A DNA stretch of 64,000 bases from Escherichia coli (GTDB taxonomy: Bacteria > Pseudomonadota > Gammaproteobacteria > Enterobacterales > Enterobacteriaceae): NCBI RefSeq assembly GCF_048403405.1, contig NZ_CP183131.1. The stretch is one strand, 5' to 3'. A program made the position numbers. Positions 42,001-48,000 of this stretch are shown piece after piece. Position 1 is the first letter of the stretch. Every line of letters starts with the position of its first letter.

Positions 42001-45000
42001 CGCGCTCCTTGTAAAAAGTGGGCATTCAGCACCACCTATCCTATTCCAAAAACTCTACTTTTTCAAAGATACATTTTAATAAGTAGAACAACAGCAAGAG
42101 GAACTCAAATTTATTTACCGTAATTATCATAATTACGGTAATACGGTAATTTTACAGATTTGGATGGAATGGTATAAGATGTCTCGCTGGAACATACTTG
42201 CTGAAAAAACGCTTAACAACGATAGTGAAAACATCATGTACAGGTGCGAGAGATAATATGTATAAGAGCCTTGAAGATCTGATGGCGGGTATTTACGAGA
42301 TGGCAGCGCCAGATGGCATCATCTGTAACGAGGTTTCCAAATTCCTTGCGGCCAACCAGGTCAAGCCGGAAGACATAAGCTCTGGGATCTGGTTTTTCCT
42401 GTGGCTGAAATCAGCTCCCAAGGATGCGAAGCCAATCCAAAAAGAAATCCCCGGATTTGGAGTTGTTCTCAACATGCCGACTTATGGCGGAACGCTCAAC
42501 GAAGCAATCACAGGGTTGATCGAGAACGAGTGCCGTCAAATAGAGCTCGCTGAGGGACATCCGAGCCTTGAGGCTTGGGTTGAATCAGTATTAGCCGGTC
42601 GAGATGACGGAGAGGAAAATGAAGCTGCGGCCAATATCGTGGATCTGCTTAATGGGTGTCACGACCTACTGGATACAGCAATAATCAATTACCTTTTTAA
42701 GGTGGGAAAAATCAACGAGCAAGAGATTTTGTCGCTCATCTATTATGGAGAGCTATGTGACCACTCTCTTGTCGGTACGCCTTTTTCAACGTTACATATC
42801 CCGAGTGAAAATAACGTCCACGAACGTAACATCATCCCCATTAAAAAAGGAGCCAGTTAGGCTCCTTTTTGTTACTCAGGGTTTGCTTTGAGAAACAACT
42901 TCATTCCAAGTATGCAGCACCTTCGATAGGTGCTGATGCTTTCTGGTGAAGTCCTTATCATCCAAGAGTGCTTTAAATGGCGCGTTCAGGTCACTGCATG
43001 TGACGTTCTTGCCGATCACAGACAGGGTATCCTGGAGTGATCCACCAGCAGCATCAAGCCCCATTCTATCGACGGTCTCACTACTCACCATTGCCTGGAC
43101 AACATTGGTGAATGCCTTTGAGTTGAGCTGCTCAACGCTCAGGGCTGTATTGCATTTCTGCTCAACCGCTTGCTTGTACTGGATGGTGTACTTTGCAGTG
43201 ATAGGTGACATGGTGTTCATCGCAAGTATGTATGCGTCTACCTCACTGGTCGGTAATGTCGCGGCATAGACTGACGAGCATGATGCGGCTGCGGCCATTA
43301 TCAAAGTTATTACCTTCTTATTCTTCATTTCTCTGAAATCCCCCTTTAAAATATGGAGCTACAACTCATTTGTACCAATCATAATACTATTGATTTCCAA
43401 AAGTATCTCTCTCTACTGACTCTATGATGGCTCGCCTTCCAAACACTTGGCCGCTGGCGGCGGCTGGGCCAACGCCAGAGCCTGATCCACACTATCATCC
43501 GCCTGAAAAAAATCTCATTACCTCTGACGGATAAAGAAACAGATTTCCCCCTTTGGCAAAAAACAGATACCAAACAGAAAAAGCCACAGAAAAAACACCT
43601 GCAACACACACTTCAAATCTATTTCTTGCAGAGAAATACTTGTAGTGCTTTTTTTCGTATCTCGGGGCTCTCATTTTGACTAGATTTTTCAATGTCAACC
43701 AAAGAAAGATAACCCCAGTAGGAAGGATAACTATCACAACCCCAAAGAAATAAATTGTGTATATAATAAAATCAAACCAGTTATTGATTTCCATAAGCCG
43801 TCCCCAATGCTGCGCCAATAGCAGAACCATGTGAGCCGTATTTAATCCCTGGATTCCTCATTAGCTCTCTTTAACTTTAATATTTTCCTTAGATTTAAGT
43901 ATCCATAGATTCCTGAGAACACTCCATACCCCCCCCAAACACCAACGGACAGATATAAGGCGAATTTGCTTAGAGGCCCATTCACATAATTTAATAAAGC
44001 GAACACTGCAATTCCTATAAAGGCTCCAGCTAAGGAAGGTGCGAACAAGTTCCTGATATGAGATCATCATATTCATCCGGAGCGCATCCCAGAGGGACAT
44101 CATGAGCCATCAACTCACCTTCGCCGATAGTGAATTCAGCACTAAGCGCCGTCAGACCCGAAAAGAGATTTTCCTCTCCCGCATGGAGCAGATTCTGCCA
44201 TGGCAGAATATAACCGCTGTCATCGAGCCGTTTTATCCCAAGGCGGGCAATGGCCGACGGCCCTATCCGCTGGAGACCATGCTGCGTATTCACTGCATGC
44301 AGCATTGGTACAACCTGAGCGACGGTGCCATGGAAGATGCCCTGTACGAAATCGCCTCCATGCGCCTGTTTGCCCGATTATCCCTGGATAGCGCCCTGCC
44401 GGATCGCACCACCATCATGAATTTCCGCCACCTGCTCGAGCAGCATCAACTGGCCCGTCAATTGTTCAAGACCATCAATCGCTGGCTGGCCGAAGCAGGC
44501 GTCATGATGACCCAAGGCACTTTGGTGGATGCCACCATCATTGAGGCACCCAGCTCTACCAAGAACAAAGAGCAGCAACGCGATCCGGAGATGCATCAGA
44601 CCAAGAAAGGCAATCAGTGGCACTTTGGCATGAAGGCCCACATTGGTGTCGATGCCAAGAGTGGCCTGACCCACAGCCTAGTCACCACCGCGGCCAACGA
44701 GCATGACCTCAATCAGCTGGGTAATCTGCTTCATGGAGAGGAGCAATTTGTCTCAGCCGATGCCGGCTACCAAGGAGCGCCACAGCGCGAGGAGCTGGCC
44801 GAGGTGGATGTGGACTGGCTGATCGCCGAGCGTCCCAGCAAGGTAAAAACCTTGAAGCAGCATCCGCGCAAGAACAAAACGGCCATCAACATCGAATACA
44901 TGAAAGCCAGCATCCGTGCCAGGGTGGAGCACCCGTTTCGCATCATCAAGCGGCAGTTCGGCTTCGTGAAAGCCAGATACAAGGGGCTGCTGAAAAACGA

Positions 45001-48000
45001 TAACCAACTGGCGATGTTATTCACCCTGGCCAACCTGTTTCGGGTGGACCAAATGATACGTCAGTGGGAGAGATCTCACTAAAAACTGGGGATAACGCCT
45101 TAAATGGCGAAGAAACGGTCTAAATAGGCTGATTCGATGTGTTTGCGGGAAAAAAATCGGCCCAGATCCGCGAAATTTTAATCAGCGAGTCAGCTTGGGA
45201 AGAAATGACCTGCTTATTCGCACCTTCCCTAACGGAAATCCAAGCAGATATACTGCTCTATATTTTAAACCGGTTTTTTTCATCTTATTATTTATCTATA
45301 TGTTTTGAAATCTTATCTACAATGGATGTAGTATCCATATTCATTATCCTCCCTGCTTTTTCAATCAGAAACTCAGCTTCATTTGTTATGTTCTTTGACT
45401 CTTCATTAATAATGTCAATGATAGTTTCTAGTGCGATTCCATACTCACCCACATCAATAAATTCTTGCACTTCTATACTTTCAGATTCAGAAAACGAATC
45501 AGACAGCACCATAAGCAAAAGATCTAGCGTGGATTCAATTTCTCTATATTCATTTTTCATTTTGGATTCCTTGGTACGTTTGTTGGAAAACCTGAAACAA
45601 TATCACCATTAGATTCTTGTATTACACGAACATTAATACCTTCTTTAACTGCCTCTGCAATAGTCCTACCACCGCGCCCAGCCTTTCGAGAAACATTTGG
45701 ATCGGTAGCTATATCGGAAATGACGTGCATAATTTTTTCATCAGACCAACTTTGAGGAAACTCACTTTTTCCAGGCTTGCCTGTTCCTGCTCGATGCCCT
45801 CCACCAGTGGCGTCACCATCAAGAATATGCTTACGTCTCTGGGAACTGGCTAGGTCTACAAAATCATCAGCCGTATTTTTAAAAGCGCGTTCCGCAACAT
45901 TCCCTAGCGCCTTATAGTTGCCAGGCAGGATAATCCCAGCAGCAAAAAGCCCCCCGGAAATCCACTTTTCTCTTGAGGTCGCACAATCACTGGTGATGGT
46001 CTTGAAGGTGTCATAGGCGTCCCAAGCGCTCAAGGCAAAGTCTATGGCAACATAAGCCCCCAGAAGAAGCGGCACAAACTCCCCTGTTGGATCTGCATTG
46101 CCTATCGGGTTGCTCAGCGCATAGGCATAGGTGTTAATCCCACCAGCCAGCCCAATCGGGTCACTGGTGATGTAACGCCCGGTATTCGGGTCGTAGTAAC
46201 GCCGCCAGTTGTAGTGGAGCCCGGTCTCCGCGTCGTAATACTGTCCTGGGAACCGCAAATTGAAGGTCGGCCCCTGAGTGGTGATGCTGGCCTTACCGAA
46301 CGGGCTGTAGCTCGCCTTCCAAACCACTTGGCCGCTGGCGTCGGTTAGCGCCTTCGGGGTGCCCAGATGATCGACGTGGACTTGATAGGTCTGTCCTGAC
46401 TGAGCAAAGCTCAAGGGGGTGCCATCGAGCCAGATATACTCCGCCAGCACGTCTCCAGTGGCTGCGTCCAGCTCCTCGATGAGGTTTCCTGCCAAGCCGT
46501 AAATCAGTAGGCGGGTCTGGCCGTTTAGGGTCTTAGTTACACGCTGATCCAGATGGTTGTAGGTGTAAGCTGCTGTCACTCCAGCGACCGTTGCGGCCAC
46601 CAGCCGGTTCTGGCTGTCATAGGTGAAGGTATCCGCCCCCTGCTTCGTCAGGTTGCCATTGGCGTCATAGCTTCTGGAGGTTTGCCCAGTCTTCACCAGC
46701 CAGTTGTTCATGTAGTTGATGGTGTAGCTTTGGCTCAGGCCATCGGTCGTGATCGAGGTCCTGTTGCCGGTGGCGTCATAGCCATAGCCCAAAACGCCAT
46801 AGAGCCCCTCAGCAGAGGTGATGCGGCCAACCGCGTCATAACCGAGTGACTGATTGACTGATGAGCTGAGATTGTCGTCTATGGCTGAAATCAACGAGTC
46901 TGGCGTGTACCGATAGACCAGCGAATGCACTCTAGTAGCGTCGATGCCGGTGACTCGGTAATTGAGATCCAAAGAGCGACTTTCTGAAATGCCGTTCCAT
47001 CTGACCATACTGGTGACGGGGCCAAAGGGCGCTCGCTCGATCTGGCTTGCCAGGCTTGTTGTGGTGCCTGCTTGTGTCGTTGCCACCTCGATGACGTCAC
47101 CGGCTAAATCACGGGTGTAGGAAACCTCACGACCACTGGGATACGTGATCTTCGTGATGAGGCCTGCACCATCGTATTGGTACTGGGTAGTAAGGCTCTG
47201 CCCGTGGGTTTCCCAGGTCTCGTAAGCCAACCATCCTTCGGGTGTATAGCCATATCTCCGGACACCGTTGCCATCATCGACTGAGGTCAAGCGGCCCATG
47301 CCGTATGGTGAGGTTGCTTCGTCGTACCCGTACAGAATTGGCGATTCGCCAGCGACACCGCTGGATGCCTCGATGATCCGGTTCAGCGCGTCGTAGCTGT
47401 AGCTTGTGGTTTGTCCCTTGGCCGTCTTGCGCGTTGCCACGTTACCGGCTTCGTCATAGGTAATGTCGGTGGTGCCGGTGTCCGGGCTCCGGACCTGAGT
47501 CACTTCGCCAAAGCCGTTGTAGCTGTAGTAGGTCAGGCGCGAACGAGGGTCGGAGACACGGTAAACATCGCCGGTATCCTTGTAGAGCACCTGCGTGACC
47601 TTCCCGAGTGGATCGGTCGTTTGTGTCCGGTGATGGAAGCCGTCGTACTTGTAGGAGTGTGTGTTACCAGAGGGACTGGTCTCCTGTATCAGGTTTGCCA
47701 CCACATCGTAGGAAAACGATGACTGATTGCTATAGGCGTCGGAGACACTGGAGAGCCAGCCGATTTCGTTGAAGATCCGGCGCTCTATCCAACGGGTCTG
47801 GCCCAGCGCATCGAGCAGTCGCTCTTCTACTGGGTTCCCGAGGTCATTGAGCTCAAGCTCGCGCCGGTTGCCCTGTGCATCTGTTTCCGCCACCAGCCGA
47901 TGTGCAGCGTCGTACTCATAGCTGACGGTTGCACCATTTGGCTTAGTCAGCGAGCTCAGGAGGCCCACAGCATCATAGTTGTAGGCCGTGGTTCCTTCTG

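Follow-up and report, generated by a model that had tools for sequence, protein, structure and literature searches.

Orphan immunity genes are known from the rhs orphans of Salmonella, from the orphan immunity arrays of Vibrio cholerae and from the acquired interbacterial defence islands of the Bacteroidales. Here we describe a candidate of the same kind, orf80, which encodes a small membrane protein behind the rhs2 and mafI genes of a conjugative IncC (IncA/C2) plasmid of Escherichia coli (assembly GCF_048403405.1, contig NZ_CP183131.1), and which has been split by a copy of the insertion sequence (IS) ISKpn26. The whole stretch of 64,000 nucleotides that was analysed is referred to as the window.

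Small hydrophobic immunity proteins stand behind membrane-depolarising toxins in the Tse5/Tsi5 pair, in which Tse5 is an Rhs pore-former (PMC9637101, PMC10684867), and in contact-dependent inhibition (CDI) systems, where ionophore toxins are accompanied by CdiI proteins (PMC11630599). In Neisseria, EndoU toxins and their immunity proteins form the MafB/MafI pairs (PMC4287609). On IncC plasmids, the R2 marker that splits type 1 from type 2 consists of rhs1 versus rhs2 together with a "downstream variable region" (PMC6872532, PMC7652850, PMC8169936, bioRxiv 10.64898/2026.05.05.723028). The length of rhs1 is given as 4,254 bp (PMC8169936); MT559985 is listed as an rhs1 plasmid (PMC7652850) and the IncC plasmid pYR1 as rhs3 (PMC8169936).

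Judged from its sequence and from the position of its relatives, orf80 is probably an orphan immunity gene of a family of glycine-rich, predicted membrane-inserting Rhs toxins, which would have been left behind when an EndoU–MafI module replaced the toxin tip, and which ISKpn26 has since split.

The ISKpn26 insertion and the restored orf80

The element occupies positions 44034..45228 (plus strand, by its transposase) and is 1195 bp long, with both ends readable in the sequence. The left terminal inverted repeat of 16 bp, GGAAGGTGCGAACAAG (44034..44049), agrees at 15 of 16 positions with GGAAGGTGCGAATAAG, the reverse complement of the right repeat (45213..45228). The element is flanked by two copies of the target-site duplication CTAA, the left at 44030..44033 and the right at 45229..45232, the latter being nucleotides 52-55 of orf80. 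Its sole long open reading frame (ORF; 44102..45082, plus strand) encodes a DDE transposase of the IS5 family, of 326 residues. This protein reaches 366.8 bits with NCBIfam transpos_IS5_4 (cut-off 140) and 123 bits (E = 1.7e-35) with Pfam DDE_Tnp_1, and it also matches DUF772; the ORF is oriented opposite to the rhs operon. A preliminary description of this DNA had spoken of an IS5 insertion with a CTAA duplication. The family and the duplication stand, but the element is not canonical IS5: it is 100% identical to RefSeq copies annotated "IS5-like element ISKpn26" and has 92.3% nucleotide identity with IS5A of K-12 (320 of 327 transposase residues the same). The precise name is therefore ISKpn26, an element closely related to IS5 but distinct from IS5 proper, and the name IS5 is only loosely correct.

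The empty site was rebuilt by deleting ISKpn26 and one CTAA, and the resulting 2202-bp query was compared with PLSDB. It matches many IncC plasmids in a single piece at 100% identity. Coverage of the query is 80% or more in 321 PLSDB records, with hosts in Klebsiella, Salmonella, Escherichia, Vibrio, Proteus and Photobacterium. Since the rejoined sequence is identical to IS-free IncC plasmids, far beyond chance, the insertion and its target duplication are proven. As had been suggested beforehand, rejoining restores an intact ORF for a small membrane protein, and it does so with 100% identity to the IncC plasmids; the relatives without the element, where absence of such an ORF would have spoken against the proposal, carry it intact, and an 81-bp probe across a homopolymer tract within it is matched exactly in 311 of 352 PLSDB records. 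Among 72,556 PLSDB plasmids and 5,426 complete genomes of E. coli, no other example of this ISKpn26 junction was found, which makes the insertion private to the present plasmid.

The restored orf80 lies on the minus strand, from an ATG at 45283 to a stop codon at 43842-43844, and encodes 80 residues, MKKTGLKYRAVYLLGFPLAGAFIGIAVFALLNYVNGPLSKFALYLSVGVWGGYGVFSGIYGYLNLRKILKLKRANEESRD. The earlier estimates of about 86 residues and of a start 13 bp after the immunity gene need correction, since the ATG is 4 nt beyond the mafI stop codon (TAA, 45288-45290). In IS-free plasmids, such as pP91278, the gene is annotated as the hypothetical protein WP_000750746.1, of 80 residues. ISKpn26 is located between codons 18 and 19. 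The 5′ fragment (45233..45283, minus strand) holds codons 1-17, MKKTGLKYRAVYLLGFP, and the 3′ fragment (43842..44033, minus strand) holds codons 18-80 and the stop, and with them the greater part of helix 1 as well as helix 2 and the basic tail. Read from its own ATG, the split gene is cut after 18 codons ("GFPL") and continues through 15 codons encoded by the IS to a stop, which gives a product of 33 residues.

AlphaFold2, run on an alignment of the orf80 family, predicts a helical hairpin with helices at residues 4-35 and 40-79 and a mean confidence (predicted local distance difference test, pLDDT) of 91, and hydropathy supports two membrane helices. By the positive-inside rule, the protein would be an inner-membrane hairpin with the N-terminus and the basic C-terminal tail in the cytoplasm. 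Neither Pfam, NCBIfam nor PHROGs contains anything significantly similar to orf80, and a Foldseek search of the hairpin model against the Protein Data Bank (PDB) returned generic membrane hairpins only, all with E of at least 1.

The insertion leaves both genes of the main pair intact. These are rhs2 (45557..49819, minus strand; 1420 residues; Pfam RHS_repeat, DUF6531, RHS and EndoU_bacteria), whose variable EndoU C-terminal tip (roughly 45557-46150, minus strand) scores 36.2 bits against EndoU_bacteria (cut-off 25.3), and the mafI-family immunity gene cognate to that tip (45288..45560, minus strand; 90 residues; NCBIfam immunity_MafI 64.5 bits, cut-off 31). Expression of orf99, the next gene downstream of orf80, is probably lowered through polarity. 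A promoter and terminator scan gave counts at or below the shuffled expectation, with no promoter-like site on the minus strand.

YTAR sites occur at 15.9 per kb in the low-GC block that contains orf80 vs 2.45 per kb in the rhs core, that is, about six times as often. Other plasmids have an ISAs1-family element and an IS1 in the 3′ (EndoU tip) region of rhs2, or ISEc29 where a 150-residue gene normally lies, and the error-prone assembly L016 has an IS5 inside the EndoU tip. An IS hotspot in orf80 was considered and rejected, as the other insertions in the cassette are in the rhs2 3′ region or in the region of the 150-residue gene, and none is in orf80. Their scatter argues that the block is a general IS sink.

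Relatives of orf80 and a family of glycine-rich Rhs toxins

The orf80 family comprises 20 cluster representatives by a word-based profile search and 22 by an exhaustive one. Its members have about 70-108 residues and share the motifs GFPxxGxxxG, NGPLS and SVxxWGxxGxFxGxYG, followed by a basic tail.

The company that these relatives keep is what supports an immunity function. At locus L017, protein P0005, 71% identical to orf80, begins 4 nt past the stop codon of an Rhs fragment that has a glycine-rich tip; tips of this kind contain 16-17% glycine, 6-7 GxxxG motifs and 6-10% charged residues. More distant relatives of orf80 (24-43% identical) are found at L018, L019-21 and L022-23 behind homologous tips, which are 48-57% identical to each other. 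A tblastn search with the glycine-rich tip against plasmids found it on 17 conjugative plasmids. In pYR1, the rhs3-type IncC plasmid, the main Rhs protein ends in a glycine-rich toxin, and a family member of 79 residues follows with a stop/start overlap (E = 4e-24 with the hidden Markov model, HMM, of the family). In pVPS91 of Vibrio parahaemolyticus, the Rhs toxin is followed by a member of 76 residues, 51% identical to orf80, and then by a gene like orf99, so that the order is that of the window minus the EndoU–MafI module.

A scan of genome contigs with the toxin profile found only four loci, in four species genomes. Behind every toxin copy comes a small two-helix ORF with a match to the immunity HMM. 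For the four full-length copies this match is weak (E = 2e-5 to 1.5e-3; 84-residue type); the one strong match (E = 1e-14) is to the ORF behind a toxin copy that has diverged, in the loci of Shewanella and V. sinensis. In a sister branch, the toxin is paired with a different two-helix protein of 83/84 residues, weakly similar to the orf80 profile; toxins and immunity proteins that form cognate pairs would be expected to co-vary in this way. The recorded hosts of the glycine-rich toxins are Vibrio, Photobacterium, Shewanella and Halomonas, together with IncC plasmids of the pYR1 type. The toxin profile detects no such domain within the 64-kb window; its sole match there, to rhs2 at 23 bits, probably reflects the end of the shared core, which forms part of the profile.

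Thus, orf80 stands directly downstream of the main toxin-immunity pair and in the same orientation, its homologues stand behind one toxin family, and a toxin of that family is absent from the window. One relative of orf80 belongs to an rhs orphan array, where other immunity-type genes precede it. The likely history is that, in the rhs2 lineage, recombination in the rhs core swapped a glycine-rich tip for the EndoU–MafI module, and that orf80, with orf99 behind it, was stranded downstream as an orphan. If expressed, orf80 would give protection to the plasmid's host only when toxins of the glycine-rich family arrive from other bacteria, and it would be expected to neutralise them in the inner membrane. 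On the present plasmid, a copy of ISKpn26 has transposed into the CTAA between codons 18 and 19. As the EndoU nuclease tip has its own MafI, orf80 is probably not a second immunity gene to EndoU, and an assay of protection against the plasmid's own EndoU tip would probably be negative.

A stronger proposal is that orf80, possibly with orf99, is a functional orphan immunity gene on rhs2 IncC plasmids and shields any host that takes up the plasmid from glycine-rich, membrane-targeting Rhs toxins. We regard this as possible but would sooner expect it to fail. It would amount to a plasmid-borne "acquired interbacterial defence", in which a G8 tract within orf80 could make the gene phase-variable.

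Doubts and alternatives

Several observations weigh against the assignment of orf80 to immunity. A Shine-Dalgarno sequence is not obvious upstream of its start. Among close IncC relatives, the ratio of non-synonymous to synonymous substitution rates (dN/dS) is 0.5-0.6, a mild constraint measured on no more than 21 substitutions. Frameshifted forms of orf80 are found on 539 contigs (74 residues) and on a further 57 (73 residues), vs at least 999 with the form of 80 residues, and the gene may be an already decaying relic. Relatives at L024-26 and L027-29 are without a visible toxin locus. The glycine-rich toxin has no match in Pfam or NCBIfam, sequence and profile searches against PDB chains gave two weak, unrelated matches, and the AlphaFold2 model of the tip, with a pLDDT of 52, is too poor for a fold search. 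The label "membrane toxin" would accordingly be read as a suggestion from composition and analogy. Lastly, the insertion may not have removed the gene's activity altogether, as a TTG-initiated hybrid ORF of 68 residues (43842-44048) begins in the end of the IS and keeps both helices; its initiation signals are poor, and residual orf80 function by way of this hybrid may exist.

The frameshifts deserve attention because they bear on the strongest rival explanation. They arise at a homopolymer, C8 on the strand shown and G8 in the coding sense (43929..43936), whose length differs between database copies: G9 leads to the protein of 74 residues and a shorter tract to that of 73. These length differences could reflect slippage or phase variation, or they could be sequencing errors. 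Part of them is sequencing error, since assemblies L014 and L016 are homopolymer-error-ridden versions of the same IncC locus. Two apparently divergent relatives of orf99, P0063 (61%) and P0059 (76%), were dropped as products of these two assemblies, and that they proved to be assembly errors weakens the case for true phase variation from the G8/G9 variants. A like frameshift is seen in the Aeromonas protein P0017 and in P0018, a more distant homologue. Past the tract, both frames encode a hydrophobic second helix and then a charged tail.

That rival explanation holds that orf80 on IncC plasmids is a former immunity gene, now non-functional and decaying, so that the insertion struck junk and has no phenotype. 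The frameshifted contigs just mentioned, the relaxed dN/dS and the want of a clear ribosome-binding site are all compatible with it, as are the absence of the cognate toxin from the window and the existence of type 1 IncC plasmids that have neither orf80 nor orf99. However, the 80-residue frame is intact and 100% identical in the 311 of 352 PLSDB plasmids, which come from many genera, and the start of orf80 is so close to the mafI stop (4 nt here, 1 nt in Aeromonas) that it fits translational coupling. Moreover, some of the frameshift variants are demonstrable assembly errors, and the IncC backbones are nearly identical, so that they have little power to reveal either decay or constraint. We therefore consider a dead relic unlikely, though it is the alternative to be taken most seriously.

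Much less probable is that orf80 and orf99 serve the EndoU Rhs system itself as accessory factors; they might add a second layer of immunity, anchor MafI to the membrane or act like holins in the release of an Rhs protein that bears a Sec signal. Such a role would suit the tight linkage and common orientation of orf80 with rhs2-mafI and the retention of the MafI-orf80-orf99 block in Aeromonas plasmids and on a metagenomic contig. Two helices and a charged tail in a small protein are likewise holin-like features, and one member of the orf80 family has a marginal match to Phage_holin_3_6 (E = 0.0075). On the other hand, relatives of orf80 stand directly behind a different toxin where EndoU and MafI are absent, and searches of PHROGs, Pfam and NCBIfam with orf80 gave nothing significant. 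In the Aeromonas plasmids L003 and L004 the EndoU toxin has been destroyed and the small genes persist, as would be expected of immunity genes and not of release factors. For orf80 and orf99 alike, PHROG, Pfam and NCBIfam gave no significant match to a holin or lysis protein, and no lysin gene was seen nearby. The preliminary description had left it between an additional immunity gene and an accessory gene; the first is best supported by the synteny with a toxin, and an EndoU-Rhs accessory does not agree with a family that occurs without EndoU and MafI.

The least credible proposal is that the insertion is adaptive, ISKpn26 altering expression of orf99 or of the truncated orf80 by read-out transcription or by relieving the silencing of an AT-rich block: IS5 is known to act in this way at bgl and flhDC, the block is indeed AT-rich (GC 0.385) and the TTG-initiated hybrid ORF spans the IS end and the 3′ part of orf80, but the insertion is unique among the plasmids and genomes searched, with no sign of spread or recurrence, the promoter scan showed no promoter-like site on the minus strand and overall counts below the shuffled expectation, and the other IS insertions of the cassette are scattered.

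Since type 1 plasmids do without both orf80 and orf99, and since no cognate toxin is present, the insertion is in all likelihood a neutral event in clinical hosts. The event itself is ordinary and of little consequence: it is private, probably neutral, and leaves toxin and immunity intact.

The IncC rhs array among known systems

On the minus strand, the order of genes is rhs2, mafI, orf80, orf99 and a truncated stub of an rhs core. Around rhs, the sequence shows 100% identity to IncC-typed plasmids, and the neighbouring IncC backbone has the int, exonuclease and Ter genes as in pP91278. Plasmids with rhs1, such as MT559985, align only to positions 46148-49900 of the window, with 96.9% identity; their rhs1 ORF has 1417 residues vs 1420 for the Rhs protein of the window. 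In the rhs1-type plasmid L002, a different Rhs tip is followed by an immunity gene of 146 residues, no small membrane ORFs, and then the same stub. Since the rhs1 plasmids share the core only, diverge from 46148 and have other genes downstream, the window carries rhs2. The plasmid could be a type 1/2 hybrid.

The rhs2-specific cassette, which consists of the EndoU tip, mafI, orf80 and orf99, has a GC content of 0.385 vs 0.564 in the rhs core. The low-GC block reported beside the immunity gene is thus real, with values of 0.33-0.40 on either side of ISKpn26 and about 0.56 in the core. It had been likened to an orphan toxin-tip or immunity cassette, and the part of this that survives is the immunity-type material: within the block no orphan toxin tip was found, only the stub at 43430-43494.

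Rhs2 begins, near 49819, with MRSRPSLLLMRNLRSLAVVVLATLPCVAFAQ, which resembles a Sec signal peptide and is followed by DUF6531. No PAAR or other adaptor domain for type VI secretion systems (T6SS) was detected in Rhs2 by Pfam.

The last gene of the cassette, orf99 (43495..43794, minus strand), encodes a two-helix membrane protein of 99 residues, WP_011872911.1, for which Pfam, NCBIfam and PHROGs gave nothing significant. It is a real gene: measured against a paralogue that shares its metagenomic contig, dN/dS comes to 0.15-0.19, and synonymous sites are saturated. Its relatives are the final gene of modules with three different toxins, directly before the next orphan core fragment or backbone stub, so that orf99 is not specific to one toxin. 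It may be a module-boundary or recombination-arm gene. Members of the orf99 family (about 100 residues, two helices) are conserved at the N-terminus, MEINNW.D, and at the C-terminus, W.LFF.KGG.L..YP.EVMRFF.G. Besides that of the window (43495-43794), copies are located in L005 (931-1230 and 3051-3350), L040 (4296-4598 and 6050-6406), L041 (4343-4642) and L009 (521-709), where the 3′ end alone remains. A match in Xenorhabdus (L012, L013) was dropped as an independent context, because the fragment carries neighbouring IncC backbone genes.

Beyond orf99 lies a degenerate leader and core stub of an orphan rhs, about 65 bp long, truncated and frameshifted (43430..43494, minus strand). Its segment 43430-43463 matches the core at 46310-46344 with a deletion of 1 nt. 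It ends at 43430, where the IncC backbone resumes, and the rhs1 plasmids share this truncation; up to the same point, the stub and the leader of a complete orphan rhs module of Aeromonas plasmids are collinear.

Related arrays show further rearrangements. In the Aeromonas plasmids L003 and L004 (7056-7727), an ORF with a NERD domain has become joined to the last ~48 residues of the EndoU tip, next to a fragment of an ISAs1-type element (DDE_Tnp_1_assoc). The toxin is destroyed there, and MafI, orf80 and orf99 remain. An rhs1-like tip (motif HHWAI.RN...NHPWNLKSIP) with a gene of 143 residues occurs as an orphan module in the metagenomic contig L005 and in pVPS91 (L040), downstream of main modules of the EndoU or glycine-rich type. 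Given these rhs1-like orphan modules, the rhs1, rhs2 and rhs3 of IncC plasmids look like alternative resolutions of one multi-module array. Small cysteine-rich proteins of the CPCC type take immunity positions in the same rhs arrays (L009, 1734-1943, PF14206; L041, 2946-3212).

Elsewhere in the window, the backbone to the left of the Ter gene is interrupted, and kfrA, which is there in pP91278, is not seen at 32874-37118. This region contains a fragment of a TonB-dependent receptor gene (32874-33899), a pair of ORFs for DDE transposases (34028-34996 and 35014-35886) within a block whose GC content is about 0.33, and an N-terminally truncated methyl-accepting chemotaxis gene (36072-37118; HAMP and MCPsignal). 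It looks like accessory or rearranged DNA.

The interest of the locus is in what the insertion drew attention to. The "downstream variable region" of the IncC R2 marker can be read as a modular Rhs toxin/immunity array, in which the alleles, rhs1, rhs2, rhs3 and others, represent alternative modules of tip plus immunity. Two hypothetical proteins widespread on type 2 IncC plasmids gain assignments: WP_000750746.1 is a candidate for an orphan immunity protein, and WP_011872911.1 would be a membrane protein encoded at the end of the module. Moreover, an unnamed toxin/immunity family pair is defined, with pYR1 and pVPS91 as natural examples. We consider the pair assignment and the modular reading of R2 modestly new. 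If it is true that the orphan protects its hosts, IncC plasmids would give a competitive benefit unrelated to antibiotic resistance.

As an insertion, the event differs from other cases of IS5 and ISKpn26 in its target site alone, the element being in no other way unusual; the length of 1195 bp, the 16-bp inverted repeats, the DDE transposase and the 4-bp duplication at a YTAR site, here CTAA, are common ground. With the MafB/MafI pairs of Neisseria, the plasmid shares an EndoU tip and a MafI protein that fall in the same families by profile score, and it differs in that the toxin is carried on an Rhs scaffold rather than MafB, with orf80 outside the pair.

For the glycine-rich toxins and the orf80 family, the closest parallels are Tsi5 and CdiI. 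No sequence similarity to these systems is detectable (toxin against PDB chains), and what we draw is a functional analogy only: in each case, a short, very hydrophobic, helical immunity protein comes directly after a C-terminal toxin that is rich in glycine, low in charge and all-helical, and both toxin and immunity are highly polymorphic.

Finally, compared with the orphan modules of Rhs, CDI and T6SS loci, the array described here is unlike them in its setting, the backbone of a broad-host-range resistance plasmid of the IncC group, and in the state of its parts, as the orphan toxin has shrunk to a stub of about 65 bp and the immunity and toxin families are unnamed. The architecture is nonetheless the same. 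An immunity-type gene lies downstream of the main pair with its cognate toxin absent, the array is broken up by fragments of rhs cores, and rhs1, rhs2 and rhs3 differ from one another by whole tip-plus-immunity modules swapped through recombination in the core.

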